Positions 7,175 to 48,369 of a stretch of 64,000 nt of DNA are shown here, piece by piece. Position 1 is the stretch's first letter; every line of letters begins with the position of its first letter. The position numbers and the translations under genes are program-made. The notes under the pieces were generated by a model, which saw nothing but the letters and a program-made list of their open reading frames with translations, was not told the DNA's origin and did no database searches. The stretch covers positions 16,153-80,152 of the forward strand of contig CAWAGZ010000008.1 of the NCBI GenBank assembly GCA_963781755.1, in the 5' to 3' direction. The stretch comes from an uncultured Acidobacteriota bacterium. GTDB lineage: Bacteria; Acidobacteriota; Thermoanaerobaculia; Multivoradales; JAGPDF01.

Positions 7175-7177
7175 CGT

Positions 7178-14621: not shown

Positions 14622-14699
14622 CGGGGCGGGCGGCGCAGTGTAGCAGCGCCGCGACGGGGCTCCGCGCGGGCTCCGGGCATTCTCCGCAGCGGGTGCGGA

Positions 14700-16582: not shown

Positions 16583-16630
16583 CGGGAATATTGGATCACG
16601 GCCGGGTCTCGGCGCCGTGACGCCCGTGCG

Positions 16631-17623: not shown

Positions 17624-17639
17624 CGCTCGCGCCGCAGGG

Positions 17640-18293: not shown

Positions 18294-18468
18294 GGCTCGA
18301 ATGGCTCGGATCGGTCGGTTCGGAAGGTCGAAGACGGCGCGGGGAAACTAGCATCCCCGTCACACCTCCGTCACACCCCCCGAGGTGGGCCCCGGCGCGA
18401 GGGTGGGGCGCCGCCTGGTCGCGCCCTCGCAGCCCCGCTGCTGGCCCGGCTTGCATAGACTCTGCGAA

Positions 18469-19197: not shown

Positions 19198-19201
19198 CCG
19201 G

Positions 19202-19945
19202 GTGACGCCCTCGTCGGCGCGGCTCGCCGGCAAGCTCGCCCTGGTCACCGGCGGCGTGCGCGGCATCGGACGGGCCACCGCCGAGCGGTTCCTCGCCGCG
19301 GGCGCGCGGGTTGCGGTCTGGGACGTGGAGCCGGGGGAGGCCGACTCGTGGCCGGAGCCGCGGCCGGAGGTCGCGCGGGTGGACGTCGCGGATCCCGCTT
19401 CGGTGGCCGCGGCGGCAGCCCGGCTCGAGGAGGACTTCGGAGGGATCGACGTCCTGGTCAACAACGCCGGGATCAACCTGGCGCGGTCGCCGGCGCTCGG
19501 CGACGTCCGCGAGGACGAATGGAGGCGGGTCCTCGACGTCAATCTCTCGGGCACCCTCCACGTCACTCAGGCCGTGCTGCCGCTGATGCTCAGGCGGGGC
19601 GGAGGGCGGATCATCAACTTCTCCTCGGTGCTGGCGCTCGCGGGCTTTCCCGGCCAGACCGCTTATGCGGCGAGCAAGGCGGGGATCCTGGGACTGACCC
19701 GGGTCTGGGCGCGGGAGCTGGGGCCGCGGGGGATCACGGTGAACTGCCTGGTCCCCGGCTACATCGAGACCGCGATGAACAACGCGGCGGCGGTGGAGTT
19801 TCGCCGTGCCGTCGTGGCGCGCACGGCACTGCGCCGCCTCGGAACACCCGACGACGTCGCCCGCGTCTGCCTGTTCCTCGCCTCCGAGGACGCCGCGTTC
19901 GTCACCGGAACCGCGATTCCGGTCGACGGCGGCCTCGCGACCTGA
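19202..19945 (+). CDS. SDR family oxidoreductase (FabG/3-oxoacyl reductase-like)
   Basis: LVTGGVRGIG, NNAG, YAASKAG motifs; 4-nt gap after the preceding SDR. Confidence 0.8.
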   Translation: MTPSSARLAGKLALVTGGVRGIGRATAERFLAAGARVAVWDVEPGEADSWPEPRPEVARVDVADPASVAAAAARLEEDFGGIDVLVNNAGINLARSPALGDVREDEWRRVLDVNLSGTLHVTQAVLPLMLRRGGGRIINFSSVLALAGFPGQTAYAASKAGILGLTRVWARELGPRGITVNCLVPGYIETAMNNAAAVEFRRAVVARTALRRLGTPDDVARVCLFLASEDAAFVTGTAIPVDGGLAT

Positions 19946-20016
19946 GCCCGGCAGGGCAGCACCCCTCGGCGGCGAGGGCGCCGGGGTTTCTCGGAACGAC
20001 GCCGCGCGGACCGTCT

Positions 20017-22434: not shown

Positions 22435-22659
22435 CGGTCTCGTCTCCTCGCGGCAGCGGGCCGGAGCCCGGACGGTTCTTCCCGGCGAGCGGCGGACAGC
22501 TGGCCTCCACGCCGGGCCGGGAACACGCTAGGCGCCCGGTGCGGCGGCGGCGTCACCGACGCGCGGCGCCGGGGCGACGTTCGCGAGCTGGCGCGTACCG
22601 TCACCGGCTCGTCGATGCGCCGCCACCGCCCGGTCGGCACCGGGCGATAGAACGCGTCC

Positions 22660-24130
22660 ATGGAGACTCCGACCGCGGTACTCGAGCTCGGCCCTCTGCG
22701 CTGCCTGTCCCTGAATCTGCGACGGCTCGAGAGGTGGCTTTCGGCGCGCGGCGCTGCGCGGCGTCCTCGCACTGTCGGGCGGCGCGGTCCGCGTCGAGGG
22801 CGCGGACCGGCTCGCGGCGGCGCCGGAGCCGTCGATCTTCGCCCTGACCCACCACAACGTCTGGGAGGCGCTGCTCGCGCCCGCGGCGTTGATGGCGGCG
22901 CGCCGCGGCCGCCCGGTCCGGTTCCTCATCGACTGGATGTTCGTCGACCTGCCGTGGACTGGGTGGCTCCTGCGTCGCTTCGCGCCGATACCGGTCTACG
23001 CCAAGCCCGCACGCTTCCGGCTACGCGAGCGCCATCGCCGCGAGCGGCGGCGCGATTCGGCGTTCGACGCCGCGGTGGCGGCGCTCGGCGAGGGTCAGGA
23101 CGTCGGCCTCTATCCGGAGGGACGGCGCAATCCGGATCCCTGGTTGCTCGGCGCGCCGCGCCGCGGCCTGGCGCGCCTGGCGTTGCGCGCGGGCGCGCCG
23201 GTCGTGCCGATCGGCATCGACTTTCCCGCCCGCGACCGGCTCCAGCGCACCCCCCGAGCCGGCCGTCTCGTGCTGCGCGTCGGCGAGCCGCTTTCGTTCG
23301 GGGCGGAGCACGCGGCCTGGCGGGACGCGCCTTCGGGAGGAGAGCGGCGCCGGGTCGAGAAGCGGCTGGGGCCCGAGATCGCCGACCGGGTCCACGAAGA
23401 GCTGGCGCGCCTCGCGCGCAAGGTCTACGTCCGCAGAAGCCGGCCGGAGAAGGAGGCCACGGTGGCGGGGGCGGCGATCGAGAGCGGGCTGTCGGTGGCG
23501 AAGGTCCTGGATCCGGCGATGCGCGAGGCCGCGCTGGGCGTGATCGCGGAGGTCTACGGCGAGGAGAAGCGCTGGCTGGCGGACGCGGCGCCGGAGATCC
23601 CGGTCGATCCGACGGCGGACTCCAGAGTCAGCTGGTTCCTCGCCCGTTCGGCGGGCGAGCCGGTGGGCGTCGTGCGCCTGTCCTACGATCCGCCGCTCGA
23701 GCTGCCGCGGGACTTCGAAGTCGAGATCGACTCCGGGATCGATCTCGAGCGGCTGGCCGCGGGCGGCCGGTTCGTCGAGGTCGGCAGGCTCATGATCCGC
23801 TCGAGCTGGCGCTCGCGTCCGGCGGCCGTCCTGGCGCTGATGCGGTCGGCGCTCGCCGAGGTCGTCGGGCGGGGCTACACCCACCTGTTCACGGCGGTGT
23901 TCGAGGACGACCCGCATTCGCCCTATCGATTTCACACCCGTCAATTGGGTTTCGAGCGCGTCGGCACCCATCGCCACGGCGAGTTGGAATGCGAGAGCCG
24001 CAGGATCCTGCTCGTGCTCGACCTGGCGCGCGCCTGGCGCCGTCTGAGGGCGCGCCGGGCGGCAGTGGTCGGTCACCTGGCGCGCGGTCTCGAGGAGCGA
24101 CTCGAAGGGCTCGCGGTCGCTTCATCGTGA
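22660..24130 (+). CDS. bifunctional acyltransferase (N-terminal PlsC/LPLAT-like O-acyltransferase with HHNVWE box, C-terminal GNAT/OlsB-like N-acyltransferase; OlsF-like). N-terminus unresolved (apparent frameshift or non-canonical start).
   Basis: ORF track calls 22889..24130 (TTG start). The LPLAT domain (LRGVLALSGGAVRVEGADRLAAAPEPSIFALTHHNVWEALL, then EGRRNPD, PVVPIGI) continues upstream in the same frame to ~22715 with no ATG/GTG/TTG. An ATG at 22660 opens a different frame (METPTAVLELGPLRCLSLNLRRLERWLS) that would join with a 1-nt indel near 22740. C-terminal domain carries an OlsB-like VGVVRLSY box. Confidence 0.65.
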
Positions 24131-24206
24131 CGCCGCCGACGCGCCGAGTTGACGCCCGAGGCGCAAGCTCTGGACGCGGCGGAGAAGCGTCCGGAGGCCG
24201 GCGACC

Positions 24207-24743
24207 ATGAACCTCGACACCAGAACCCTCGGACCCCGGCTGCAGGAGCTGGAGGTCGGGCTCTGCCAGCGCGCCGTCCGCATCCAGGAGCGCCGCGCGG
24301 TCCTGGCTTTCTTCCGCACGGTCTCGCGCCTCGGCGACGGCGGGCTCTGGATCGCGTTGGCGGGTTTGCTGGCGGTCGTCGGCGGCGAGCGGACGCTGGC
24401 GACGGTGGCGCGGATGGCGGCGGTCGGCCTGGCTTCGACGGTCGCGAGCAAGCTGCTCAAGAGGTGGGCGTGCCGGCCGCGGCCGTGCACCGTCGCGGCG
24501 GGCATTGCGGCCGGCGCGGCGCCGCTCGATCCCTGGAGCTTCCCCTCGGGCCACACCCTCCACGCGGTGGCCTTCACCGCGGTCGTGGGCGCCGAGCTGC
24601 CGACGCTCGCCCTGCTGCTGTTGCCGTTCACCCTCGCCGTCGCCGCGTCGCGCGTCGTCCTCGGCCTGCACTATCCGAGCGACGTCGCGGCGGGCGCCGC
24701 GATCGGACTGGCTCTCGCCGGCGCGGTCCTGGCTTTCTCGTGA
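24207..24743 (+). CDS. PAP2 superfamily phosphatase (phosphatidic-acid / lipid-phosphate phosphatase type)
   Basis: All three PAP2 motifs: KLLKRWACRPRP (KxxxxxxRP), PSGHT, SRVVLGLHYPSDV (SRxxxxxHxxxD). Membrane protein, 178 aa. Confidence 0.85.
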   Translation: MNLDTRTLGPRLQELEVGLCQRAVRIQERRAVLAFFRTVSRLGDGGLWIALAGLLAVVGGERTLATVARMAAVGLASTVASKLLKRWACRPRPCTVAAGIAAGAAPLDPWSFPSGHTLHAVAFTAVVGAELPTLALLLLPFTLAVAASRVVLGLHYPSDVAAGAAIGLALAGAVLAFS

Positions 24744-25981
24744 ACCCGCGCGTCCTCTTCCTCTCCGACGTCTACTTCCCGCGCGTCAACGGCGTCTCGA
24801 CGTCGATCGGTGTCTTCCGCCGCGAGCTGGCGGCCCACGGCGTCGAGGTCGAGCTGATCGCGCCGGCCTACGGCCGTACCGCCGGTGATGGAGAGGAGGC
24901 GGGGATCACGCGGGTGCCGGGGCGGAGCTTGCCGTTCGACCCCGAGGACCGGCTGGTCGCGGCGCGGCGCATGACCCGGGCGGCCGCGGCCCTGGAGTTC
25001 GACCTGGTCCACGTCCAGACCCCTTTCGCGGCCCACCGCGCGGGAGTCCACCTGGCCCGGCTCCGGCGGGTGCCGTTGGTCGAGACCTGGCACACCGACT
25101 TCGAGCACTACTTCGAGCACTACGTGCGCTGGGTCCCGGCGCCGCTCGCCCGCGCGCTGGCGCGGACCCTGGCGCGCCGCGTCGCCCGGCGGGTGGACCT
25201 GCTCGTCGTGCCCTCGGCGGCGATCGACCGCGCCCTGGCCGCGATCGGCGTCGCGACCCCGCGCGCCGTGATCCCGACCGGGCTCGCTCCGGGCGAGCTC
25301 GGCGCGGGGGACGGCGCGCGCTTCCGCGCCGCCCACGGCATCCCGGCCGACCGCAAGGTGGCGGTCCACGTCGGCCGCGTCGCGCGCGAGAAGAACATCG
25401 GCTTCCTGCTCGAGGCCGCAGACCGGGCGCGCCGCGAGATCCCCGACCTCTTGCTGGTCGTCGCCGGCGAGGGACCGGCGCGCAGCGAGCTCGAGCGGCG
25501 CGCCCGGGAGCTCGGGCTGGGATCGAACGTCTTGTTCGTCGGTTACCTCGGTCGTTGCGGCGAGCTCGCCGACTGCTATTGCGCCGGCGACTGCTTCGTC
25601 TTCGCCTCGCGGACCGAGACCCAGGGCCTCGTGCTGCTCGAGGCGATGTCGCTCGGGGTACCGGTCGTGGCGCTCGCCGAGCAGGGGACGGTGGACCTGC
25701 TCGTGGCGCGGCGCGGCGCCCTGGTGCCGGCAGCGGAGCCCGGCGACTTCGCCGCCGCGATCGTCCGCCTGCTGCGTGACCCCGCGCTCGCCTCCCGCCT
25801 CGGGCGCGAGGGACGCGAGGTCGCGGCGGAGTGGTCGGCGCCGGCGCTCGCCGGCCGTCTGGCGGCCCGCTACCGGGAGCTGCTCCCGGCACCGCTAGGG
25901 GCCGGAGAGGGTGTGGTGGGCGCGCCGGGCGCCGCGGTGGCAGGCGAGCTCCGTCACGTCGCCGTCACCGCCCGGGACTAG
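24740..25981 (+). CDS. GT4 (group 1) glycosyltransferase
   Basis: GTG start at ~24740 overlapping the PAP2 stop (GTGA). VNPRVLFLSDVYFPRVNGV N-terminal GT-B fold; EX7E-like FASRTETQGLVLLEAMSLGVPVVA. The long ORF-track N-terminal extension (from 24149) overlaps PAP2 and is rejected. Confidence 0.85.
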   Translation: MNPRVLFLSDVYFPRVNGVSTSIGVFRRELAAHGVEVELIAPAYGRTAGDGEEAGITRVPGRSLPFDPEDRLVAARRMTRAAAALEFDLVHVQTPFAAHRAGVHLARLRRVPLVETWHTDFEHYFEHYVRWVPAPLARALARTLARRVARRVDLLVVPSAAIDRALAAIGVATPRAVIPTGLAPGELGAGDGARFRAAHGIPADRKVAVHVGRVAREKNIGFLLEAADRARREIPDLLLVVAGEGPARSELERRARELGLGSNVLFVGYLGRCGELADCYCAGDCFVFASRTETQGLVLLEAMSLGVPVVALAEQGTVDLLVARRGALVPAAEPGDFAAAIVRLLRDPALASRLGREGREVAAEWSAPALAGRLAARYRELLPAPLGAGEGVVGAPGAAVAGELRHVAVTARD

Positions 25982-25993
25982 ACTCCGGAGGCG

Positions 25994-28207
25994 ATGACGT
26001 CCGAGACGACGGCCCTCGGGGGCCCGGCCGGGGAAGTTGGAGCATCCGCCCGCGAGCCCGGCGGCGCCGCGGCGGACGGTGGTCCGGGGGCCGGCGCGGA
26101 ATCGCCGTTCTTCGACCGCGAGCTGTCCTGGCTCGAGTTCAACCGGCGCGTGCTCCACCAGGCCGAGGACGACTCCCTGCCGCTGCTCGAGCGGCTGAAG
26201 TTCGTCGCCATCTTCGGCGGCAACCTCGACGAGTTCTTCATGAAGCGGGTGGGGGGCCTCAAGCTGCAGCTGCTGTCCGGCCGTTCGACCCGGTCGCCGG
26301 AGGGCCGCACCCCGGCCGAGCAGCTCGACGCTGTCGCCGCGGCGGTGCGGCCGCTGGCCGACCGCGCCCGGGAGGTGCTGGTCGGCGACCTGCTCCCCCT
26401 GCTGCGGCAGCGGGGCGTCGAGCTGGTGAGCTGGCGCGAGCTGGGACCCGAGGAGCGTCGCTGGGCGCGCGATTACTTTCTGCGCACGGTCTTCCCCATC
26501 CTGACGCCTCTCGGTCTCGACACCTCGCACCCCTTCCCGTTCATCTCCAACCTGTCGCTGTCGCTGGCGGTCGCGATCCGCAGCCCGGCGTCGAGCGAGG
26601 TGCGGTTCGCGCGCGTCAAGGTCCCGCCGTCGCTGCCGCGCTGGGTCCAGCTGCCGGAGGGCAACCGGTTCCTGGCGCTCGAGGACCTCATCGCGCAGCA
26701 TCTGGAGAAGCTCTTCCCCGGTCTCGAGCTGCTCGAGACCTACGCCTTCCGGGTCACCCGGGCGGCCGACGTCGAGCGTCACGAGGAGCCGGCCGAGGAC
26801 CTGCTCGAGTCGATCCAGGAGGAGCTGCGCGAGCGCCGCTTCGCCGCGGTGGTGCGGCTGGAGGTGGTGCCCGAGATGCCGGCGTGGATGCGCGCCCTGC
26901 TCGCCGACGAGCTCGAGATCGAGGCCACCGATCTCTACGAGACCCGGCCGCCCCTGGCCGCCCGAGACCTGTTCCAGCTCGCCGCGTTGCCCGTGCCGGG
27001 TCTCGTCGAGCCGCCCTGGCAGTCGGTGACGCACCCGCGCCTGGCGCCGGGCGCCGACGGGCGCGAGCCCGACCTGTTCCGCGTCCTGCGCGGAGGGGAT
27101 CTCCTGGTCCACCATCCCTACGACTCGTTCACGAACTCCGTCCAGAGGTTCCTCCAGGTGGCGGCAGAGGACCCGGCGGTACTCGCCATCAAGCAGACCC
27201 TGTACCGGACCTCGCGCAGCTCGCCCGTGGTGCGGGCGCTGATCGAGGCGGCCGAGCGCGGCAAGCAGGTGGCCGTGCTCGTCGAGCTGCGGGCGAGCTT
27301 CGACGAGGCGCGCAACATCGAGTGGGCCGAGGCGCTGGAGCAGGCGGGAGCTCACGTGGCCTACGGCGTGGTCGGGTACAAGACGCACGCCAAGGTCTCG
27401 CTCGTGGTGCGTCAGGAGAGCGACGGACTGCGCGCCTACAGCCACTTGGCGACCGGCAACTACAACACCGACACGGCGGAGCTCTACACCGACATCGGGC
27501 TGTTCACCTGCGATCCGGAGATCGGCGACGACAACGCCCAGCTGTTCAATCTCCTGACCTCCGGCCACCTCGCGGACCAGAGCTTCTCGAAGATGCTGGT
27601 CGCGCCGGTCAACATGCGCCGCGGGATCCTCGAGCGCATCCAGCGCGAGATCGAGCACGTCCGGGCCGGCAGGGGCGGACGCATCCAGGCCAAGATGAAC
27701 GCCCTGGAGGACGCGGAGATCGTCCTCGCGCTCTACGACGCGTCGGCCGCCGGAGTCGAGATCGACCTGCTGGTGCGCGGCGTCTGCCGGCTGCGCCCTG
27801 GGCTGGCCGGGCGGAGCGAGAACGTCCGGGTGATCTCGATCGTGGGCCGCTTCCTCGAGCACGCGCGGATCACCTGCTTCGGCAACGGCGGCGAGCCCGA
27901 GTACTTCATCGGATCGGCGGACTGGATGTCGCGCAACCTCGATCGCCGGGTCGAGGCGATGGTTCCCGTCAACGCGCCGCCGCTGCGCCGCGAGCTGCAG
28001 GAGATCCTCGACCTCCAGCTGGCCGACAACCGCAACGCCTGGGAGCTCGGGCCGGACGGCTCCTGGCGGCGCAAGCTCCCGGCTCCGGGCGAGCCCGAGT
28101 GCGCCAGCCAGCGAGTCCTGATGGAGCGGTCGCGCGCCCGCGTCGCCCGCGTCGAACGCTTCCCGGCCCCTGGCGACGAAACGCCCGGCGGGTCGCCCGT
28201 GCGCTAG
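25994..28207 (+). CDS. ppk: polyphosphate kinase 1
   Basis: 737 aa; N-domain FFDRELSWLEFNRRVL, PLD-like HKD motifs (GYKTHAKVSLVV, …), full PPK1 architecture. Confidence 0.95.
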   Translation: MTSETTALGGPAGEVGASAREPGGAAADGGPGAGAESPFFDRELSWLEFNRRVLHQAEDDSLPLLERLKFVAIFGGNLDEFFMKRVGGLKLQLLSGRSTRSPEGRTPAEQLDAVAAAVRPLADRAREVLVGDLLPLLRQRGVELVSWRELGPEERRWARDYFLRTVFPILTPLGLDTSHPFPFISNLSLSLAVAIRSPASSEVRFARVKVPPSLPRWVQLPEGNRFLALEDLIAQHLEKLFPGLELLETYAFRVTRAADVERHEEPAEDLLESIQEELRERRFAAVVRLEVVPEMPAWMRALLADELEIEATDLYETRPPLAARDLFQLAALPVPGLVEPPWQSVTHPRLAPGADGREPDLFRVLRGGDLLVHHPYDSFTNSVQRFLQVAAEDPAVLAIKQTLYRTSRSSPVVRALIEAAERGKQVAVLVELRASFDEARNIEWAEALEQAGAHVAYGVVGYKTHAKVSLVVRQESDGLRAYSHLATGNYNTDTAELYTDIGLFTCDPEIGDDNAQLFNLLTSGHLADQSFSKMLVAPVNMRRGILERIQREIEHVRAGRGGRIQAKMNALEDAEIVLALYDASAAGVEIDLLVRGVCRLRPGLAGRSENVRVISIVGRFLEHARITCFGNGGEPEYFIGSADWMSRNLDRRVEAMVPVNAPPLRRELQEILDLQLADNRNAWELGPDGSWRRKLPAPGEPECASQRVLMERSRARVARVERFPAPGDETPGGSPVR

Positions 28208-29223
28208 CCGGCAGCCTCGCCGGACTGGCCGGCCACGGCGAGAGCGTCCACCAGTCCGGCGATTCCGGACTCGAGCGCCGCCGCCTCCGGGGCCTCCTCG
28301 GCCAGCCAGCGTTCCGCGAACTCGGCGGCGAGCCGGTCGCGGCGTTCGGCGATCCGGCGCGCCAGCGCCGAGCGGCCGGCGCGACCGCCGGGCAGCCGCG
28401 GCCGTCGGCTCCCCCCCGTGGCGGCCAGAACCCGGCTGCGCTCGCCCTCCGCGGCCTCGGCCGCGAGCTCGGCGGCGAGCACCGCGAGATCGTTGGCGGC
28501 GCCGAGCAGGTCCTGGAGATGGCGCAGCCGCGCGACCACGGCGCGGGCGGCCGGCAGCCGCGGCGTCACCGGCTCGAGCAGGTAGCGCAGTCGCTTGGCC
28601 GCGATGCGGACGCGGTGGATCCGGACCGGCTCCGGGGACTCCCGCGCGAGGTCCAACGCGGCGAGCAGCGCGTCGGCGTGGCGGGCGAGCTGGGCGCCCA
28701 GGGCGGCGCGGAACGGACGCTCGGGCTCGGTCTCTCCGTCGAGGCGGATCTCGACCCGCCAGATGCCGAGCGTCTCGCGCAACCCCGCGATCAGCCCGTC
28801 GAGCTCGCCCAGCCTCTGCTCGCGGACGTGACGGTAGACCTGTTCGCGGCGGTCGCTCAGCCGGCCGGCGAGGACGCCGGCCGCACGGCGCTCGCTGCCC
28901 TCGGCGCCGTCGGCGAGCTGGGCGAGCAGAGCCGCGCCCACCTCGGCGTCGCGCCCGGGGTTGGTCGCCGCCGCCAGGCGGCGCACCCGGCGCCGGAGCT
29001 TGCGTCCCACGGCGTCGCCGAGCTCGGGGCGGAAGGCGCGCAGGTCGCTGCGCAGGCGGCGCAGGGCCACCCGAAGGTCGTGCAGAGCCTCCGGGTCCCC
29101 GCCGCGCTCGAGCGCGAGCCGGGCCTGCTCGGCCCGCGCGACCTCGGCGAGCGCGATCCGGCGCGCCGCCTCGCCCGCCGGACGCTCGAGTAGATCGCGC
29201 GGCAGCGCGGGCTCGCGGATCAC
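28204..29223 (-). CDS. CHAD domain protein (conserved histidine alpha-helical domain; polyphosphate-associated)
   Basis: Repeated HDLRVALRRLR / HRVRIAAKRLRY CHAD signatures; 3' end overlaps ppk1 3' end by 4 nt (convergent). Confidence 0.8.
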   Translation of the reverse strand: MIREPALPRDLLERPAGEAARRIALAEVARAEQARLALERGGDPEALHDLRVALRRLRSDLRAFRPELGDAVGRKLRRRVRRLAAATNPGRDAEVGAALLAQLADGAEGSERRAAGVLAGRLSDRREQVYRHVREQRLGELDGLIAGLRETLGIWRVEIRLDGETEPERPFRAALGAQLARHADALLAALDLARESPEPVRIHRVRIAAKRLRYLLEPVTPRLPAARAVVARLRHLQDLLGAANDLAVLAAELAAEAAEGERSRVLAATGGSRRPRLPGGRAGRSALARRIAERRDRLAAEFAERWLAEEAPEAAALESGIAGLVDALAVAGQSGEAAG

Positions 29224-29720
29224 GGCGCGAGGTCCCGCGCCTGACCGGCGGTCAGGTGCCAGAGGAGACGTCCGCCCCCGGCCCGGATCGAAGTCCGGAA
29301 ATCGACCAACGCGGCGCCGCCCTTGCGCATCGCCGCGATCGACTGCGCCCGGCCGGTGACCATCAGTCCTTCGAGCCGGGAGAGCCCGGGCTCGTGGCCG
29401 ACCAGCGCGATCGCGGCGAGCTCCCGGCGTTCGGCAAGGAAGCGCAGCAAGGGCGCGCCGCCGCCGCCGGGCGCGAGCGCCCCGAGATCGACGATCTCGG
29501 GATGGCGGGGGTGGGCGTCGCGCAGGAGCTCCGCGGTCTGCCGGGCGCGACGCAGGGGACTCGTCGCGATCAACGCCAGCCCCGGAACGTGAGCCGAGAG
29601 CCCGCGGGCGCCGCGTCGGAAGCGACGCTTGCCCTCGGGCGTCAACGGCCGGGCCCGGTCGTCGTCGGGAGAGGCGCCGCGCTCCGCGGCGATGGCATGA
29701 CGCACCAACAGCACGCGCAC
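29220..29720 (-). CDS. histidine-phosphatase superfamily protein, SixA-like phosphohistidine phosphatase
   Basis: LVRHAIA (RHG-type motif), PLTPEG, GHEP; 166 aa; 4-nt overlap with CHAD gene. Confidence 0.75.
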   Translation of the reverse strand: MRVLLVRHAIAAERGASPDDDRARPLTPEGKRRFRRGARGLSAHVPGLALIATSPLRRARQTAELLRDAHPRHPEIVDLGALAPGGGGAPLLRFLAERRELAAIALVGHEPGLSRLEGLMVTGRAQSIAAMRKGGAALVDFRTSIRAGGGRLLWHLTAGQARDLAP

Positions 29721-29760
29721 GGCGCGCGACGCTAGCAGAGAGGTGTGACGGTTCGCGGCG

Positions 29761-30441
29761 TCAGGCGCGCAGGCGGTAGCCGACGCCGATCACGGTCTCG
29801 ATCCGGTCGGCTTCGGCGCCGAGCTTGCGGCGCAGCCGGCGCACGTGGGTGTCCACCGTCCGACTGTCGACGTCCTCGGCGTATCCCCACACGTCCGAGA
29901 GCAGCCGCGAGCGGGTCTGGACGCGTCCCTGCCGTTCGAGCAGGACCTTGAGCAGGCGGAACTCGGTCGCCGTCAGGGTGACCTCCTTGCCCCGCGCCTC
30001 GACCCGGTGCGCCGATGCGTCGAGCCGGAGGCCACCCGCCTCGATCACGTCGCCGGCGTCCTCTCCGGCGTGACGGCGCAGGACCGCCTTGATCCGGAGC
30101 ACGACTTCGCGTGGGCTGAACGGCTTCGGGATGTAGTCGTCGGCGCCCAGTTCGAGTCCCACGATGCGGTCGACCTCCTCGCCCTTGGCGGTGAGCATGA
30201 CCAGGGGGACCCGGGCGGTCGCCGGGTCGCGCTTGAGCAGGCGGGTGAGCTCGAGACCGTCCAGGCCCGGGAGCATCAGATCGAGCACGATGAGGTCGGG
30301 CGGCTGGCGCCGGATGGCCTCCAGGGCGCCGTCGCCGCGACGCAGGACCTCGACCCCGAAGCCCGCCTTCTCGAGGTTGAACTGCAGCACTTCGGCGATG
30401 TCGGGCTCGTCCTCGACGACGTAGATCCGCTGTTCGGCCAT
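29761..30441 (-). CDS. phoB: OmpR/PhoB-family two-component response regulator (PhoB-like)
   Basis: REC domain (VVEDEPDI…DLIVLDLMLPGLDG…K) plus winged-helix trans_reg_C (…RTVDTHVRRLRRKL…GVGYRL); 226 aa. Confidence 0.85.
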   Translation of the reverse strand: MAEQRIYVVEDEPDIAEVLQFNLEKAGFGVEVLRRGDGALEAIRRQPPDLIVLDLMLPGLDGLELTRLLKRDPATARVPLVMLTAKGEEVDRIVGLELGADDYIPKPFSPREVVLRIKAVLRRHAGEDAGDVIEAGGLRLDASAHRVEARGKEVTLTATEFRLLKVLLERQGRVQTRSRLLSDVWGYAEDVDSRTVDTHVRRLRRKLGAEADRIETVIGVGYRLRA

Positions 30442-30484
30442 GCGCAGCGGACGCTAGCACGGGCCTTCCGCAGGCCATGCGGAA

Positions 30485-30570: not shown

Positions 30571-30778
30571 AAGGCAACTCCATGGTGCTCAACGCGTTAC
30601 GCTCAAGTCCGTGGACCGATTGAAGAAAGCGCTGCGCAACCGGGCACCACTTTTCCACAGCGACCGGTGACGGGCCGGTAACGGCGGCCGTAAATCTTTG
30701 CAACGCTTCGTCTTGACAGCCCGAGCGGGCGGCGGTTACCGTCCCGTCAGTGGTCCCCGGACCGGCGGAGGCTGGAGC

Positions 30779-31096
30779 ATGACGATGACGACGCTCGCGA
30801 CGATCCGCTCGTATCTGATCTTCACCGGCACCGGTCCGATCCTCGTGCTGTCGACCTATCCCGAGCTGCGCGACCCGCGGCTGCTCGCCAAGCTCCAGTA
30901 CAAGGGCATCTCGAAGTTCATCGCCTACGAGGTCGCGCTCGACGCGGTCAAGAACCGCTACGAGCACGCCTACGGCAACATCGCGCACGATCTCGACGAG
31001 GTCGAGGACATCCGCGTGCTCGACTTCAACGGCCACCAGATCATGGCCAACTTCTCGCTCGACGAGCTCGGCGACCCGATCAAGTTCGGCGGCTGA
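30779..31096 (+). CDS. hypothetical small protein (105 aa), no recognised domain
   Basis: ATG at ~30779 preceded by GGAGG; N-terminal hydrophobic stretch; ORF-track frame 30698..31096. Confidence 0.4.
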   Translation: MTMTTLATIRSYLIFTGTGPILVLSTYPELRDPRLLAKLQYKGISKFIAYEVALDAVKNRYEHAYGNIAHDLDEVEDIRVLDFNGHQIMANFSLDELGDPIKFGG

Positions 31097-41508: not shown

Positions 41509-42597
41509 ATGAACGGAGCCCTTCCCCCCCGCCCCGAGATGGACCGGGCGTGCCGGTCCCGCGACGCGTCCTACGACGGCGTCTTCTTCCTCGCCGTGCG
41601 CACCACCGGGATCTTCTGCCGCCCGTCCTGTCCGGCGCGCCAGCCGCGGCCGGAGAACGTCGAGTACTTCGGCGACGTCCGCTCGGCGCTGTTCGCCGGC
41701 TACCGGCCCTGCCTGCGTTGCCGTCCGCTCGAAGCCGACGGCCGGCCGCCCGACTGGGCCGCGGCTCTGATCGCCGAGATCGACCGCGACCCCGCGGCGC
41801 GGATCGACGACGCCGAGCTGCGCCGGCGCGGGCTCGAACCGGCGCGCGTGCGCCGCTTCTTCCGCAAGGAGTACGGGATGACCTTTCACGCCTTCCGACG
41901 CGCGCGCCGCCTGAGCGGCGCCCTGGACGAGATCCGCCGCGGCGGCGGTCTCGACGACGCCGGCTGGGACGCCGGATACGAGTCGTCGAGCGGATTCCGG
42001 GAAGCCTTCGCCCGCACCTTCGGCGACGCCCCGGGGCGCAGCCGCGACGCCGACTGCATCCGGATCGGCTGGATCGAGAGCCCGGTCGGCCCGCTGTTGG
42101 CGGGGACGACCGCCGAAGCCGTGTGCCTGCTCGAGTTCACCGACCGGCGGGCGCTCGAGCGCCAGATCGCCACCCTGCGCCGCCGCTTCGACCGGGCGAT
42201 GGTGCCGGGCGAGCACCCGCTCCTGGACCGGCTGCGCGCGCAGCTGGGCGAGTACTTCGAGGGCCGGCGCGAGCGCTTCGATCTCCCGCTCGAGACCCCC
42301 GGAACGGAGTTCGAGAGCTCGGTCTGGAGCGAGCTGCGGCGCATCCCGTACGGCGAGACCCTGTCCTACGAAGAGCTCGCGACGCGGGTCGGCCGGCCCG
42401 GCGCCCAGCGCGCCGTCGGCAGCGCGAACGGCCGCAACCGGGTGGCCATCGTCGTGCCCTGTCATCGGGTCGTCAACAAGAGCGGCCAGCTCGGCGGCTA
42501 CGGCGGCGGGCTGTGGCGCAAGAGCTACCTGCTCGACCTCGAGCGCCGCCACTCGGGCCTGTTCGCTGCGCGCGCTCCGATCGAGCCGGTGGCGTAG
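41509..42597 (+). CDS. ada: Ada-type bifunctional regulator/methyltransferase (N-terminal Zn/Cys4 methylphosphotriester acceptor + AraC HTH + C-terminal O6-methylguanine-DNA methyltransferase)
   Basis: Start at internal Met (MNGALPPRPEMDRACRSRD…) of ORF 41218..42597. FCRPSCPAR / CLRCRP Zn-Cys4; C-terminal PCHRVV active site. Confidence 0.85.
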   Translation: MNGALPPRPEMDRACRSRDASYDGVFFLAVRTTGIFCRPSCPARQPRPENVEYFGDVRSALFAGYRPCLRCRPLEADGRPPDWAAALIAEIDRDPAARIDDAELRRRGLEPARVRRFFRKEYGMTFHAFRRARRLSGALDEIRRGGGLDDAGWDAGYESSSGFREAFARTFGDAPGRSRDADCIRIGWIESPVGPLLAGTTAEAVCLLEFTDRRALERQIATLRRRFDRAMVPGEHPLLDRLRAQLGEYFEGRRERFDLPLETPGTEFESSVWSELRRIPYGETLSYEELATRVGRPGAQRAVGSANGRNRVAIVVPCHRVVNKSGQLGGYGGGLWRKSYLLDLERRHSGLFAARAPIEPVA

Positions 42598-42637: not shown

Positions 42638-43120
42638 ATGCGGCGAGTCTCGTTGCTGCTGCTCGCGCTGGTCTTCTTCGCCGGCGGCTCGCCGGCCGAA
42701 TTCCTCCTGTGTCCGGTCGTCCACGGAAGCTGCGCCCGCGCGGCCTCGACGACGACCCCGCACGGCTGCGCGCGCGGAGCGGGGGACCAACGTCCGCGTG
42801 CGGCGATGCCGGCGTGCCCCTACCTGGCGCGCGCCGCGCGGGCGGCCGCCTCGGCGTGCCCGTACCTGCGGTCCGTCGCGGGATCGCTCGACAGCCGCTG
42901 TCGGATGCGGCCCGCGCCGCCGGCGAACTCTCCCGAGGCGCCGGCCTCGGTCCATCCCCCGCGGCTGATCCGGGTCGCCTCGACGTCCTCGCCGGACCCG
43001 GCTCCCCTGCGGCGTGTGCTCGCGCCGCAGCGGATCCGTCCGCGGATCGGCTCGCCGCCCGGGAACCCCCCGGACTCTCCGCGGCCGCCCCCGGCCACCT
43101 TCGTTTCTCCCGCGCGCTGA
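42638..43120 (+). CDS. putative small secreted Cys-rich protein (N-terminal half convincing, C-terminal Pro/Arg-rich half doubtful)
   Basis: Signal peptide MRRVSLLLLALVFFAGGSPA. Mature part has CPVVHGSC, HGC, two ACPYL repeats. High-GC chance ORF not excluded. Confidence 0.3.
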   Translation: MRRVSLLLLALVFFAGGSPAEFLLCPVVHGSCARAASTTTPHGCARGAGDQRPRAAMPACPYLARAARAAASACPYLRSVAGSLDSRCRMRPAPPANSPEAPASVHPPRLIRVASTSSPDPAPLRRVLAPQRIRPRIGSPPGNPPDSPRPPPATFVSPAR

Positions 43121-43182
43121 AGTCGTACGTCCACGCAGGAGAACCGCCGGAGGGCGAGGTCCCTCCGGCAGGGAGAGAGACC

Positions 43183-43686
43183 ATGAGCTCCACCGATCGA
43201 AATCGTTGGCTGTTCGCCGGGGCGGCGATGACCGTCGCGCTCGCGGCCTGGTTCGCGCTGTCGCCGCTGAGGGCCGCGGAGTCGCAGGCCGTCCCGGCCG
43301 CGGGGACGGCGACCACGGCGTCGCCGGCACCGGAGTCCGGCGAGGCCGGTTGCTGCTGCTGTCGTCACCGGGCGGCGGAGGGGAAGGCCGCCGACTGCCC
43401 GCGTCACGGCGAGGGGAAGGCGATGGATTGCCCGCGTCAGGGCGAGGGGAAGGGGATGGACTGCCCGCGCCACGGCGCAGAGAAGGGCATGGACTGCCCG
43501 CGGCACGACGCAAAGGGTGAGGCCGGTGCGGGGATGCACCACCGCCACCACGCCGCGCAGGCGGCGAAGGCCGACGGAGGTTGCTGCCGCTGTGCGGGGC
43601 ACGGCGGCGAAGGCTGCGATCGCAAGGGCGGCGCGGACACCGGCGGGAAGCCGGCGGCACCCGCTCCGCCGGCCGCGCCGAACTGA
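43183..43686 (+). CDS. secreted Cys/His/Met-rich tandem-repeat protein (putative metal-binding)
   Basis: ATG ~43183 after GGGAGAGAGA. Signal/TM MSSTDRNRWLFAGAAMTVALAAWFALSPLRA. CCCC, then 4 x 11-aa repeats (A/M)DCPR(H/Q)G(E/A)xKGM, then HHRHH and GGCCRCAGHGGEGCDRKG. 12 Cys, >10 His in ~130 mature residues. Confidence 0.6.
   Translation: MSSTDRNRWLFAGAAMTVALAAWFALSPLRAAESQAVPAAGTATTASPAPESGEAGCCCCRHRAAEGKAADCPRHGEGKAMDCPRQGEGKGMDCPRHGAEKGMDCPRHDAKGEAGAGMHHRHHAAQAAKADGGCCRCAGHGGEGCDRKGGADTGGKPAAPAPPAAPN
43393..43521 (+). repeat. 4 x 33-bp perfect-to-near-perfect tandem direct repeats (gactgcccgcgtcacggcgaggggaaggcgatg …) inside the Cys/His-rich CDS
   Basis: Seen directly; in-frame, no spacers (not CRISPR). 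Confidence 0.85.
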
Positions 43687-43789
43687 GTCTCGAGAGGTCG
43701 ATTCACGGGCGGGGGGCGCTCGGCGCCTCCCGCCCCTTCGCGATCGGGCCGCTCCGTCGTAACCTCGGCGCGACAGATCCGGAGCGCAG

Positions 43790-45898
43790 ATGGACGACCG
43801 CGAAGAATCCCACGACGGCGAGGCATCGGCCGATCCGGCGTACGCGCCGACCGAGGCCCTGTCGGCGCCCACCGCCCCGACGCTGCACCTCTCCGACCCG
43901 GCTCCGCCGGCCGCCGGCACGGCGCCGACGGTCCTGCTGCCGGAGCCGCCGGCGGCCGCGGGCGCGGAAGGCTCCGCCGCGACCGGCGGCTCGACCGCCG
44001 ACGAGGCGTTGCCCGCGGGACCGGGAGCCGACCGCGATCTCGAGCTGCTCTCCCGGCAGACGCGCTTCCGGATCGAGAAGCTGCTCGGCGAGGGCGGGAT
44101 GGGCAAGGTCTACCGCGCGTTCGACACCGAGCTCGCGCGGCCGGTGGCGCTCAAGGTGCTCTTCGCCTCCGATGGCGAGGCGGATGCCCGTTTCGCGCGC
44201 GAAGCCCAGGCCCAGGCGCGGGTCGACCACCCGCACGTCGGCAAGGTCTACGAGACCGGCGCGATCGGCGGTCGGCGCTACATCGTCATGCAGCTGATCC
44301 CGGGCGAGACCCTCGACCGCGCCGGCGCCGCGATGACCCTCGAGCAGAAGGTCCTGGCCGTGCGGCGGGTCTGCGAGGGCGTCCACGCGGCGCACCGGAT
44401 CGGCCTCGTCCACCGCGACATCAAGCCGTCGAACATCCTCGTGGCGCGCACCGAGGAAGGGGAACATCACCCCTACGTCCTCGACTTCGGCATCGCCCGC
44501 GACCTCGAGGCGGGGCAGACGGCGACCTCGGCGGTCGTCGGCACGCCCTGGTACATGGCGCCCGAGCAGGTCGCCGCCGGCGCCGTCGACCGGCGCACCG
44601 ACGTCTACGCGCTCGGGGTCACGCTCTACCAGCTGCTCAGCGGCAAGCTGCCGATCACCGGCACCGGGTCGGTGGACGTTCTGGTGCGGGTGCTCCGCGA
44701 AGAGCCGGTGCCGCTGATGGTGGCGGACCCGAAGCTGCCCGCGGATCTCCAGACCGTGGTCATGAAGTGCCTCGAGAAGGACCCCGTCCGCCGCTACGAC
44801 TCGGCGCGCGCCTTGGCCGAAGACCTCGGCCGGTTCCTCGACGGCGAGCCGGTGGCGGCGCGTCCGGCGACCTTCGGCTACCGGCTGGCCAAGAAGGTGC
44901 GCAAGCACCGCACGCTGGTCGCGGTGGCGGCGTCGGCGCTGGCCGTGGTCGCGGTGGTGGGCGTCCTCGCGCTGCGCGACTCCTTCCGCGCGCGGCGCCT
45001 CGAGTCGCTCTCGGCGAGCTACGGCGCGGAGGCGGAGCGCTTCGAGTGGATGCTGCGCGCCGAGCGCCAGATGCCCCTGCACGACACTCGTCCGCTCGAG
45101 ACCCGGCTGCACGAGCGCCTGAGCGGCGTCCGCTCGGAGGTCGACCAGCTTCCACCTTCAGAGCGCGGACCCGGGCTCTACGCCCTGGGGCGCGGCGAGC
45201 TGGCGCTGGGCAACGTGGCCGAAGCCGAGGACCTGCTGGACCAAGCGTGGAAGCTGGGCAACCGGGGGCCCATGGTGGCCTACTGGCGCGGCAAGGCGAA
45301 GGCCTTGACGCTCAAGCGCGACCTCGACCACGCGCGATCGCGGACGCACGGCGAGGAGCGGGCCCAGGCGATCGAGGAGGTGATGCGCCGGGACCGCGAA
45401 GCGGCGGTGGCGTCGCTCCAGGCCGGAGGCGCGAGCTCGCTCGAGGGCGAGGACTACGGCCGGGCGCTGCTCGAGTGGGCCGAGGGGCGGCCGCGCGTGG
45501 CGATCGACCTCGCGGCGCGGCAGCTCGAGCGGCTGCCCTTCTTCTACGACGCCCGGATCCTGATCGGCGACGCCGAGCTGGAGCTCGCCCGCGCCGAAGG
45601 AGCCTCGGCCGAAGAGAGCTCGGCTGCGCTGGAACGGGCGCGGGAGGCCTACGGCGCCGCCGCGGCGATCGGGGCCAGCGACCCCCGCCCCTACCAGCGC
45701 CTGTGCGAGCTCGGCCTCGAGCGGGCCCGGACCGCCACCGCGGCGGACGAGCGGCGGAGCGCGGCCGAGGAGGCGCTGGCGAGCTGCGACCGGGCGCTGG
45801 TCGCCGACGCCACCGACGAGCTGGCGATCGAGACGCGCAGCGCGGTGCGGGAGTTCCTGGACGGGGTCAGTCGCGCGGAATCTCGCGGTCCAGGTTGA
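43790..45898 (+). CDS. Ser/Thr protein kinase with one TM helix and C-terminal helical-repeat (TPR-like) domain
   Basis: GxGxxG-like LLGEGGMGKVYRA, VALK, HRDIKPSNIL, DFGIA, GTPWYMAPE; TM TLVAVAASALAVVAVVGVLAL. Confidence 0.85.
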   Translation: MDDREESHDGEASADPAYAPTEALSAPTAPTLHLSDPAPPAAGTAPTVLLPEPPAAAGAEGSAATGGSTADEALPAGPGADRDLELLSRQTRFRIEKLLGEGGMGKVYRAFDTELARPVALKVLFASDGEADARFAREAQAQARVDHPHVGKVYETGAIGGRRYIVMQLIPGETLDRAGAAMTLEQKVLAVRRVCEGVHAAHRIGLVHRDIKPSNILVARTEEGEHHPYVLDFGIARDLEAGQTATSAVVGTPWYMAPEQVAAGAVDRRTDVYALGVTLYQLLSGKLPITGTGSVDVLVRVLREEPVPLMVADPKLPADLQTVVMKCLEKDPVRRYDSARALAEDLGRFLDGEPVAARPATFGYRLAKKVRKHRTLVAVAASALAVVAVVGVLALRDSFRARRLESLSASYGAEAERFEWMLRAERQMPLHDTRPLETRLHERLSGVRSEVDQLPPSERGPGLYALGRGELALGNVAEAEDLLDQAWKLGNRGPMVAYWRGKAKALTLKRDLDHARSRTHGEERAQAIEEVMRRDREAAVASLQAGGASSLEGEDYGRALLEWAEGRPRVAIDLAARQLERLPFFYDARILIGDAELELARAEGASAEESSAALERAREAYGAAAAIGASDPRPYQRLCELGLERARTATAADERRSAAEEALASCDRALVADATDELAIETRSAVREFLDGVSRAESRGPG

Positions 45899-46727: not shown

Positions 46728-47585
46728 TCACTCCGGACCGACGATGTCGGCGCGCTCGGCGGCCAGGATCGGCAGCCGCCAGCGCAGCCGGTCGGCCTCG
46801 CGCAGGTCGATCTCGGCGACCAGCAGGTGCTCGTCGAAGTAGGGCGCGCGGACCAGCACCTCGCCCCCCGGGCGCACGACGTGGCTGCCGCCGGTGTAGA
46901 AGGACCCTTCCTCCCAGCCGACGCGTCCGCAGTAGATCACCCATGCGGTGTTGAGCAGCGCCGAGGCGCGGGTCAGCGACTCCCACTCCTCCTGGGAAGG
47001 CGGCATCGGACCGGGGCCGACCCGGCCCGGCGAGGCCGAGACGACGCACAGCAGCTTGGCTCCGGCGCGCGCCAGGCGCTCGGCCGGGTCGGAGTGCCAG
47101 AAGTCCTCGCAGATCAGGATCCCGAACGGGTTGCCGGCGACCTCGGCGAGCGCCAGCCGCCGGCCCTGGCCGAAGAACCGCCCCTCCTGGAAGATGCCGT
47201 AGGTGGGCAGGTAGAGCTTGCGGTGGACGTGGGCGATCTCGCCTCCCGCCAGCAGCAGCGCGCTGTTGAACAGGAAGCCCCGCTCGTCCTCCTCGACGCA
47301 TCCCACGACGATCTCCATCTCCGGAGCCGCTTCGCGCAGGCGGGAGATCAGGGGCGAACGGTGGGGCTGGAGCGCGACCCGGGGGGTCAGGTGGAGCAGC
47401 CGGTAGCCGGTCAGGGAGAGCTCGGGGAAGACCAGCAGCTCGACCCCCTCGCCGCGGGCGCGCCCGATCCACTCCAGATGGTGCGCGAGGTTGTGCTCGA
47501 GGTCGCCCAGGCGGGCGTCGATCTGGGCGAGGCCGACCCGGATCCGCGTTCTGCGCTCGGCGGTCACCGTCGCGGATGCTAGCAT
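46728..47585 (-). CDS. carbon-nitrogen hydrolase (nitrilase superfamily) protein, likely the glutaminase partner of NadE
   Basis: E-K-C triad context: FPELSLTGY, …KLYLP…, ILICED; start set at MLASATVTAERRTRIRVGLAQ (ORF-track frame 46728..47624). Same reading frame as nadE but separated by two stops and a GGTGAGGAG RBS. Confidence 0.75.
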   Translation of the reverse strand: MLASATVTAERRTRIRVGLAQIDARLGDLEHNLAHHLEWIGRARGEGVELLVFPELSLTGYRLLHLTPRVALQPHRSPLISRLREAAPEMEIVVGCVEEDERGFLFNSALLLAGGEIAHVHRKLYLPTYGIFQEGRFFGQGRRLALAEVAGNPFGILICEDFWHSDPAERLARAGAKLLCVVSASPGRVGPGPMPPSQEEWESLTRASALLNTAWVIYCGRVGWEEGSFYTGGSHVVRPGGEVLVRAPYFDEHLLVAEIDLREADRLRWRLPILAAERADIVGPE

Positions 47586-47601
47586 CCCCGCCGGTCCGCA
47601 C

Positions 47602-48369
47602 GTGTTCCGACGAACCGCTCCCAAGCTGCTTCCAGCCCTGCTCCTGGCGCTCGTCGCCGGGCTCGTCGCCGCCTCGTACCGGCCGCTCCGGGCCCTGCCG
47701 CAGAGCGCCGCGGACGTCGCGAAGCCGGCCGACCTCGAGCTGGTCGACCGCGTGGTCGCCGTGGTGGACGAGGACCCGATCCTGCTCTCGGACGTCGAGC
47801 GGGTGATCGGCCTGCGGCTGGTCGAGGCGCGGCCGGACGAGAGCCGCCGGGCGCTCGAGAGTCGGGTCCTCGACGGCCTGATCGAGCAGCGCCTGCGACT
47901 GCACGAGATCGCCCGCTTCGGCTTCGAGGAGGCGCCGCTCGAGGATGTCGAGAAGCAGTTCGAGAACCTGCGCTCCCAGTTCCCCGACGAGGCGTCCTTC
48001 CGCGCCGAGCTCGACCGCCTCGGCCTCGACGAGTCGGCGGTGCGCCAGGTGCTCGCGCGGCAGCTGTCGATCCTCGCCTACGTCGAGGAGCGTCTCGGGC
48101 CGCGGGTCTTCGTCGGCGTCGACGACATCCGCCGCTACTACGAGGAGACGCTGACGCCGGAGCTGCGCAAGCAGGGCAAGCCCGTGCCGCCGCTCGACGA
48201 CGTGCGCGAGCAGATCCGCGCCGTGCTGCGCGAGAGCCGCCTGAACGACGAGATCGACCGCTGGACCGACGACCTGCGCAAGAAGGCCGACGTCGTCGAC
48301 CTGCTCGACGCTCCCGAGCGCCCGCTGCCCCCCGTCGTCGACACCGTCCCGCCGCAGTCGCCGGGCTGA
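47602..48369 (+). CDS. SurA-N-domain-like periplasmic chaperone (no PPIase domain evident)
   Basis: GTG start giving signal peptide (V)FRRTAPKLLPALLLALVAGLVAASY; helical SurA_N-like composition; ORF-track frame from 47491. Confidence 0.55.
   Translation: MFRRTAPKLLPALLLALVAGLVAASYRPLRALPQSAADVAKPADLELVDRVVAVVDEDPILLSDVERVIGLRLVEARPDESRRALESRVLDGLIEQRLRLHEIARFGFEEAPLEDVEKQFENLRSQFPDEASFRAELDRLGLDESAVRQVLARQLSILAYVEERLGPRVFVGVDDIRRYYEETLTPELRKQGKPVPPLDDVREQIRAVLRESRLNDEIDRWTDDLRKKADVVDLLDAPERPLPPVVDTVPPQSPG

Follow-up and report, generated by a model that had tools for sequence, protein, structure and literature searches.

Two co-inherited exported Cys-rich proteins, one assembled from 33-bp tandem repeats, in a narrow lineage of Thermoanaerobaculia: a possible stand-alone periplasmic metal binder

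A 64,000-nucleotide stretch of DNA from an uncultured Acidobacteriota bacterium of the class Thermoanaerobaculia (GenBank assembly GCA_963781755.1, contig CAWAGZ010000008.1, positions 16,153 to 80,152), hereafter the window, carries two adjacent genes that belong to no known family. Open reading frame A (ORF_A; 42638..43120, + strand) encodes a 160-residue, Arg/Pro-rich protein with an isoelectric point (pI) of 11.6. ORF_B (43183..43686, + strand) encodes a 167-residue, predicted disordered protein rich in Cys, His, Met and Gly. Both products are predicted to be exported, and the ORF list and translation place both frames where the first-pass annotation of this DNA had put them. They are real, constrained genes whose frames are kept in four genomes, and the pair is a young acquisition, confined to one lineage and placed at a variable site. 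We propose that ORF_B may bind thiophilic metals in the periplasm, unmodified and in the manner of a metallothionein, a reading to which we assign a probability of roughly 45%. The four genomes that carry the pair are that of the window, L001 and L085 (two strains from European Nucleotide Archive assemblies, one of them on a 3.87-Mb contig) and L002 (a Joint Genome Institute metagenome).

The ORF_B protein is laid out as the first-pass annotation had read it, with a signal peptide, a CCCC run, four DCPR units, the His cluster MHHRHH and finally GGCCRCAGHGGEGCDRKG. Its sequence runs MSSTDRNRWLFAGAAMTVALAAWFALSPLRA/AESQ...GEAGCCCCRH...AADCPRHGEGKAMDCPRQGEGKGMDCPRHGAEKGMDCPRHDAKGEAGAGMHHRHHAAQAAKADGGCCRCAGHGGEGCDRKGG...PAAPN, the slash marking the predicted cleavage site. 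A Shine-Dalgarno-like element, AGGGAGAGAG (43170..43179, + strand), lies 4 nt 5' of the ATG; it is conserved in L001 and reads GGGAGGAAG in L002. The signal peptide, read from the sequence, covers residues 1-31 (43183..43275, + strand) and ends in ALSPLRA/AE. Judged by eye, it resembles a Sec signal, with a charged N-terminus, a hydrophobic core and a cleavage motif that is LRA/A in the window and ALA/A in L002, where the homolog has a canonical ALA/AD site. The Ala/Gly-rich hydrophobic core is preceded by an invariant R-N-R (residues 6-8, 43198..43206), and the core of the ORF_A signal by an invariant R-R (residues 2-3, 42641..42646). Twin-arginine translocation (Tat) signals with R-N-R are known. 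Export of ORF_B and ORF_A could conceivably proceed through Tat, after cofactor loading, instead of Sec.

Three short Cys or His clusters flank or follow the repeats. The first Cys run, CCCC followed by RH (residues 57-60, 43351..43362, + strand), is CPCC in L002, which leaves a conserved CxCC. The His cluster MHHRHH lies at 43534..43551 (+ strand), and its MHHRH part is invariant among homologs. The second Cys run, CCRC followed by AGHGGEGC (43582..43593, + strand), is CCCC in homologs.

Between the first Cys run and the His cluster lie four 33-bp tandem units (43393..43524, + strand) that encode DCPRHGEGKAM, DCPRQGEGKGM, DCPRHGAEKGM and DCPRHDAKGEA. In the Asp-first register the units begin at 43393, 43426, 43459 and 43492. 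Tandem Repeats Finder reports 4.1 copies of a 33-bp period at 43373..43507, with bases matching at 84%. Among units 1-3, 26-30 of 33 bases agree (79-91% identity); for unit 4 the figure is 18-22 of 33. The 33-bp repeat is therefore real but imperfect, and the description of it as perfect in the first-pass annotation does not hold. The motif proposed at that stage stands in its D-C-P-R core, which is conserved among homologs; in these, the His that follows the Arg gives way to Q, R, G or D.

The number of units differs between close relatives, as had been predicted. There are four in the window and five in L001 and L085, and the difference is an exact in-frame block of 33 bp. The tandem repeat is no longer present in the DNA of L002, where the protein reads DCPRRAEGGKM-DCPRGEGGKMKGSHGAGAKTE-DCPRDASAK-DCPRHEGKG, with one further DCPRG near the C-terminus. 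What survives there is D-C-P-R at irregular spacing, together with C(C/P)CC-RH, MHHRH and CCCC. The retention of D-C-P-R at irregular spacing argues for independent short motifs and against a regular solenoid.

The mature ORF_B protein is ~136 residues long (13.4 kDa, pI ~7) and contains 24 Gly and 29 Ala. It has 12 Cys (8.8%, against a background of 0.76%), in agreement with the earlier count, and 9 His (6.6%, against 1.9%), fewer than the more than ten first reported. Ile, Leu, Val, Phe, Trp and Tyr together make up 1% of the chain, a composition that by itself excludes a hydrophobic core. AlphaFold2 gives a mean predicted local distance difference test score (pLDDT) of 46.7 and orders the signal helix (residues 3-31) alone, which on its own is weak evidence, as the alignment contained only two sequences; the only helices in the model are the signal peptide and residues 58-65. 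Searches for similar folds with the ORF_A and ORF_B models were dropped at mean pLDDT values of 51 and 47.

Cys is the best-conserved class of residue. Between the window and the ~64%-identical L002 homologs, 16 of 18 Cys are conserved, compared with 149 of 258 other residues (Fisher p = 0.011). In mature ORF_B, 7 of 8 Asp and 6 of 9 His are conserved in the same comparison. Many of the Cys are followed by Pro. Cys-Pro accounts for 33-67% of all Cys in ORF_A and ORF_B (3-4 of 6-7 Cys in ORF_A, 4-6 of 12-14 in ORF_B) against 5.6% in the other genes of the window, an enrichment of 6- to 12-fold (binomial P 3e-3 to 2e-5).

ORF_A reads MRRVSLLLLALVFFAGGSPA/EFLLCPVVHGSC...MPACPYLARAAR...ACPYLRSVAGSLDSRC... 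and ends in a Pro/Arg-rich tail. Its signal peptide (MRRVSLLLLALVFFAGGSPA/E; 42638..42697, + strand), read by eye, has a positive N-terminus, a 14-residue hydrophobic core and an S-P-A cleavage motif, and is invariant in the four genomes. The protein has six invariant Cys and three invariant Cys-Pro motifs (LCPV, and ACPYL twice). The signal peptide, the CPxxHGxC motif (here CPVVHGSC) and the two ACPYL copies named in the first-pass annotation are all present. Mature ORF_A has a pI of 11.4, and its AlphaFold2 model (mean pLDDT 50.7) predicts helices at low confidence. Direct comparison of ORF_A and ORF_B led us to reject the idea that they are paralogs.

That both frames are coding and constrained is seen in several ways. 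The G+C content at third codon positions (GC3) is 0.88 in ORF_A and 0.86 in ORF_B, and its peak coincides with exactly these two frames. Relative to L001, which is 94% identical, substitutions by codon position number [12,8,25] in ORF_A and [8,4,11] in ORF_B, so that the third position dominates. In ORF_A, 21 of 42 changed codons are synonymous, as compared with 7-17 in each of the other five frames. L002 is the most diverged relative (synonymous divergence dS ~0.66-0.69), and it retains start, stop, length and all ORF_A Cys. In the L002 comparison, synonymous changes are found within the conserved motifs of both proteins, and the constraint is therefore on the protein. Every ORF_B indel among the relatives is in frame. 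A loss of the Cys motifs in homologs, or conservation of another frame, had been named as grounds for abandoning the first description; the homologs keep both the frame and the motifs. The ratio of nonsynonymous to synonymous rates (dN/dS, Nei-Gojobori) takes values of 0.35 and 0.38 in ORF_A, and of 0.34 and 0.41 in ORF_B. The corresponding values for Ada, NadE, RsmI and the kinase are 0.06-0.22, and the two genes evolve at two to four times the rate of their neighbours.

Relatives of the pair are few. A word-indexed search of 5.8 billion proteins returned one relative of ORF_B (P0001) and one of ORF_A (P0002). The ORF_B homologs are P0001, P0014 and L002:4597-5133, and P0002 is a 62-66% identical ORF_A homolog that is called as a gene in L002. 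A phmmer search of 1.84 billion representative proteins gave, beyond P0001, nothing credible except a possible analog, P0010; the remaining matches were rejected as unrelated repeat proteins, several of them clearly eukaryotic-type. Neither ORF_A nor ORF_B has a match in Pfam or NCBIfam at E <= 1, nor in PHROGs or PADLOC. A PDB sequence search and a plasmid tblastn found no relatives of the pair, and Rfam gave matches at chance level only. Pattern scans with ORF_B and ORF_A profiles found no relatives in the genome, metagenome and viral contig collections. When profiles were run over every ORF of 80 nadE-anchored loci and of the window, no further members and no paralogs came up. The earlier suggestion to search for the repeat has thus returned no known family, homologs in a narrow lineage and one possible analog, and the earlier view that the repeat is not a CopC, CusF, metallothionein or HMA motif agrees with the absence of Pfam and NCBIfam matches.

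The distribution of the pair is narrow. Comparison of nadE-anchored loci assigns the organism to Thermoanaerobaculia, with a best NadE identity of 81%, and nadE directly abuts rsmI in ~40 species genomes of the class. Four genomes (L004, L012, L027 and L047) have ada between nadE and rsmI, and in L004 and L012 the end of ada is at most ~40 bp from nadE. ORF_A and ORF_B, sometimes with a kinase gene, lie between ada and nadE in the lineage of the window only, and the pair is missing from ~46 related Thermoanaerobaculia genomes. A blastn search with the whole 1.2-kb region found no trace of it in the outgroup loci. What lies between nadE and rsmI varies in Thermoanaerobaculia, as seen across loci L003-L048 (nadE at ~6001-6831). 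L047 carries unrelated cargo there, a small helical ORF and an SRPBCC-like segment; its nadE and ada are each split or fused, with frameshifts typical of long-read assembly errors.

Several known metal-binding proteins resemble parts of ORF_B. The N-termini of ZntA-type P1B-ATPases bind Zn, Cd and Pb through GXXCXXC motifs (GMDCASC in Brucella) and CCCDGAC (PMC10800456). ORF_B joins a G-M-D-C-x-x-(ligand) pattern and a consecutive Cys run in one polypeptide. However, the ZntA region is cytoplasmic and sits in a folded HMA domain, whereas ORF_B would be exported and is predicted to be disordered, and its second ligand position is His, Gln, Arg, Gly or Asp and not Cys. The HMA domain itself (PF00403, ferredoxin-like, GMxCxxC) is not matched by ORF_B in Pfam at E <= 1, and AlphaFold2 predicts disorder. 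In the periplasmic protein CopG, a CxCC motif holds a Cu4 cluster and the protein contributes to anaerobic copper resistance (PMC7558416). The likeness to CopG is a pattern match only and consists of CxCC at ORF_B residues 57-60 (CCCC; CPCC in L002), Met nearby and a probable periplasmic location. CopG, however, is a folded thioredoxin-like domain linked to cop, cus and cueO genes, and ORF_B has no Pfam match, no such fold (predicted disorder) and no cop or cus neighbours in the 64 kb.

Metallothioneins fold only upon metal binding (PMC7558416). The cytoplasmic metallothioneins (SmtA/BmtA, MymT) and the copper storage proteins Csp1/Csp3 are, like ORF_B, small and Cys-rich, and they bind multiple ions through thiolates. 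The metallothioneins differ from ORF_B in being cytoplasmic and not built of repeats, and SmtA/BmtA have a zinc-finger-like fold, whereas each Csp forms a rigid bundle of four Cys-lined helices; searches of Pfam, NCBIfam and PDB sequences tie ORF_B to none of SmtA, BmtA and Csp. A parallel in architecture is the oxazolin HvfA, with the Buf_EGKCG family of copper-binding exported peptides modified by MNIO enzymes. HvfA, with its Sec signal and 11-residue repeat AEGKCGEGKCG, binds 2-3 Cu(I) even when unmodified (PMC11252979). It shares with ORF_B a Sec-type signal, a Cys pair or cluster ahead of the repeats, a (predicted) periplasmic location, 11-residue tandem repeats with (A/G)EGK upstream of Cys, and a Gly-rich unstructured chain. 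The motif differs, being EGK-x-x-D-C-P-R in ORF_B, with Pro after Cys, and not EGKCG, and HMMER detects no relationship. The bufferin/oxazolin signatures (DUF2282, Buf_6/12Cys, repeated EGKCG) are absent from ORF_B in Pfam and NCBIfam at E <= 1.

ZntA, CopG and unmodified HvfA are precedents for metal binding by ORF_B at the level of their motifs only. The pair is best described as a variation on the theme of exported Cys-rich metal binders, one that would be stand-alone, disordered and repeat-built, and for which metal binding is plausible. Removal of the signal peptide would leave a ~136-residue chain without a hydrophobic core. This chain would present two Cys runs of the CxCC type, four to six D-C-P-R units with Met and His nearby, and MHHRH, and these elements could wrap around thiophilic ions such as Cu(I), Zn, Cd, Pb and possibly Hg or As(III). 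ORF_B would buffer metal ions or pass them on, within an envelope that is anaerobic or micro-oxic. Gain and loss of 33-bp units by slippage or unequal recombination would tune its capacity. ORF_A would be a co-inherited exported partner whose six invariant Cys may give it a redox or docking role. We infer metal binding by ORF_B from its composition alone, and the identity of the metal and the role of ORF_A are likewise conjectural.

A number of points weigh against the proposal that ORF_B is a metal binder. Metal ligation leaves Pro-Arg unexplained, two residues that do not ligate metals and yet are invariant in every unit; the His after them varies. No metal efflux pump, metal sensor or chaperone gene turned up among the ORFs scanned across the window, nor in the annotated flanks of the pair in L001, L002 and L085. 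Outside the cytoplasm the thiols would become oxidised, unless the host lives anaerobically or loading of the protein precedes export. The resemblances to ZntA and CopG are pattern matches only, without homology, and the HMA model of Pfam finds no match. Finally, a dN/dS two to four times that of the neighbours indicates weak constraint.

To our knowledge, exported Cys-based metal binders of bacteria (bufferins, oxazolins, CopG) have been recognised only recently, and all those known need modifying enzymes or are folded. If ORF_B does bind metals, a stand-alone disordered repeat thiolate protein would be a simpler and faster-evolving route to metal binding, with a number of units that shifts between near-identical strains. 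It would also be an example of a young orphan gene gaining function in an uncultured phylum. The 11-residue unit MDCPRHGEGKA is short and can be synthesised. Interest in the pair would rise if the C-P-R motif marks a broader class or a new ligand.

A different ligand is suggested by the Cys-Pro dipeptides. In this account, which we consider unlikely, ORF_A and ORF_B would form a periplasmic heme buffer or relay, in which the C-P thiolate ligates ferric heme, the Arg pairs with a propionate and a nearby His is a possible sixth ligand. Cys-Pro motifs bind Fe(III) heme in flexible regions, with a preference for an aliphatic N-terminal flank, and nearby His shifts the coordination (PMC10377097). 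Both proteins have multiple C-P dipeptides in regions that would be flexible, at the enrichment given above. In ORF_A the dipeptides have aliphatic residues before and hydrophobic residues after them, and LLCPV and ACPYL match the published flank preference (PMC10377097). Fresh CP(R) motifs (HCPRAA, ACPRTA, ACPRLA) arise in ORF_A homologs, and the invariant Arg would be easier to explain by heme propionates than by metal ions. In ORF_B, however, the units are flanked by Asp or Met and by acidic and basic residues, not by aliphatic or hydrophobic ones, and a chain so poor in hydrophobic residues could hardly shield a porphyrin. Neither the two Cys runs (CCCC, CCRC) nor MHHRH belongs to heme-regulatory motifs, the rules for which were derived from mammalian regulatory proteins of the cytoplasm and nucleus. 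A scan of the 64-kb window found no heme transport or biogenesis genes nearby.

The gene that follows ORF_B raises the possibility of a role in signalling. It encodes a Ser/Thr protein kinase (43790..45898, + strand; Pfam Pkinase 3.3e-44) which, by Pfam and hydropathy, has a cytoplasmic catalytic domain, one transmembrane helix (375-396) and an outer helical domain of ~305 residues. ORF_A and ORF_B might be ligands or co-sensors that report redox, metal or thiol stress to this outer domain, which would share a compartment with them; we find this doubtful. The order ORF_A, ORF_B, kinase gene is shared by the window and the diverged L002, and the block is missing from outgroups, where ada abuts nadE. 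The sole other CPR-repeat protein found, P0010, is encoded 39 nt upstream of an extracytoplasmic function (ECF) sigma factor. L001 and L085, however, have lost the kinase gene and retained intact ORF_A and ORF_B. The gap spans 43736..45866 of the window (~2.1 kb) and corresponds to L001:10586-10625 and L085:10586-10625, where a short upstream remnant stays. As the kinase gene is present in both L002 and the window, the deletion in L001 and L085 is recent, and the association with the kinase is ancestral but dispensable. The two genes are also separated from this facultative neighbour by a G+C-rich, terminator-like hairpin (43707..43735, + strand) just past the ORF_B stop, with a 13-bp stem, a weak U tract and z = -1.8. 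Its stems are conserved in the window, L001, L085 and L002, with changes confined to the loop. Relatives of the sensor domain (P0012, P0013) have a different downstream context. We abandoned guilt by association through this domain, as P0012 and P0013 are cut off upstream on short contigs. The many PADLOC matches of the kinase to PD-T4-6 and mad6 defence models (E to 9e-80) span the generic kinase domain only, and we read them as similarity at family level and not as support for a role in defence.

P0010 bears on the nature of the repeat itself. The 190 residues of this unannotated metagenomic protein (L083:45-617) comprise a signal peptide and a Cys cluster, then six units of 11 residues, each with C-P-R at its end, and after them HGMHRG. 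Its DNA contains a 33-bp tandem repeat (L083:318-525, 6.3 copies, 85% matches). P0010 aligns in register with ORF_B (RAAEGKAADCPR vs RAADGFAFECPR; 45% identity over 47 residues), with a library-wide E-value of only 2.3e-4 that is inflated by the repeats, so that homology is possible, and P0010 could be either a case of convergence or a distant relative. It differs from ORF_B in coming from an unrelated organism of ~50-57% G+C, in the hydrophobic character of its units (ADGSTF) and in its neighbour, which is the ECF sigma factor (L083:656-1141) and not a kinase; no ECF sigma factor was found in the 64-kb window. Should this weak link to P0010 prove genuine, the C-P-R repeat would mark out a larger family, as yet missing from current databases. 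One could go further and imagine that D-C-P-R and C-P-R arrays form an unrecognised class of exported short linear motifs, resized through 33-bp repeats in at least two unrelated lineages and wired in each to a transmembrane signalling device (the kinase here, the ECF sigma factor for P0010). The invariant Cys-Pro-Arg would then not be a simple metal ligand but the site recognised by some ligand or enzyme, whether heme, a sulfur species, a protease or an enzyme that modifies Cys. We consider this improbable.

A quite improbable alternative makes ORF_B a precursor peptide, either modified in the manner of bufferins and oxazolins or cut after ...CPR into multiple cores, by enzymes encoded elsewhere in the genome. 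MNIO enzymes are iron oxidases that modify cysteines in copper-binding peptides. The layout of ORF_B parallels that of HvfA, AEGKCGEGKCG in the latter corresponding to AEGKaaDCPRHGEGKamDCPR. Sec signals together with repeated Cys motifs are characteristic of MNIO substrates, and some precursor genes stand alone (PMC12452194). An invariant short D-C-P-R at variable spacing also resembles an enzyme recognition site. Against this, and in a further difference from HvfA, no MNIO/DUF692, DUF2063, DoxX or other maturase gene was found among the scanned ORFs of the 64 kb or in the syntenic loci, including the annotated flanks of L001, L002 and L085. Each Cys is followed by Pro and not by Gly, HMMER returned no EGKCG-type protein from the 1.84 billion representatives, and NCBIfam and Pfam gave no match.

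In DNA of 72% G+C, an open frame may lack any function, and we think it extremely unlikely that this is true of ORF_A, ORF_B or both. In its favour, no frame of the six is closed in this region, ORF_A is Arg/Pro/Ala-rich with zero Lys and has no gene call in L001 and L085, and homologs are detected in one lineage only. This reading is disfavoured by a GC3 maximum in precisely these frames, a synonymous excess confined to them, a dN/dS below 0.42 even at the divergence of L002, and the start, stop, length and all Cys kept across four genomes with ORF_B indels in frame.

The surroundings of the pair agree in part with the first-pass annotation, which placed it between ada and a Ser/Thr kinase gene with tetratricopeptide repeats (TPR). 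Upstream, on the same strand and 40 bp from ORF_A, lies ada (41512..42597, + strand), which encodes a bifunctional Ada regulator/methyltransferase (Pfam Ada_Zn_binding 6.8e-28, HTH_18, Methyltransf_1N, DNA_binding_1 1.7e-32). The kinase gene is downstream as described; its TPR matches, the only basis for that label, are below threshold (best E = 0.017, 16 bits vs a cut-off of 32.7). A ~20-nt block, CACGC(A/T)GGAGAACCGCCGGAG, stands 5' of ORF_B at 43134..43152 and at L002:4541-4562 and is nearly identical in the two, against 69% identity over the loci as a whole; it could serve as a promoter or operator. A hairpin abutting the ORF_B ribosome-binding site (43146..43169) was rejected, as it is not significant (z = -1.2) and not conserved in L002.

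The rest of the window contains genes for M16 peptidases, a phosphate regulon (pst, phoU, phoR, ppx, pit, ppk, phoB), glycosyltransferase and lipid genes, genes for VWA proteins, iscS/mnmA, gcvTHP, DUF1501/DUF1800, a peptide ABC importer and Hsp20. The phosphate neighbourhood (6266..30453) comprises pstB/pstC-like genes with a PBP, phoU, a PAS-HAMP histidine kinase, ppx, a PHO4-family transporter with a PhoU_div protein, ppk and an OmpR-type regulator, and has no apparent tie to ORF_A or ORF_B. Sizeable ORFs with good coding signal and no Pfam match occur at 2..1204, 11236..12501, 30671..31093 and 47407..48366. The last of these is a conserved 255-aa gene of unknown function that stands beside a CN_hydrolase gene in L001, L002 and L085.

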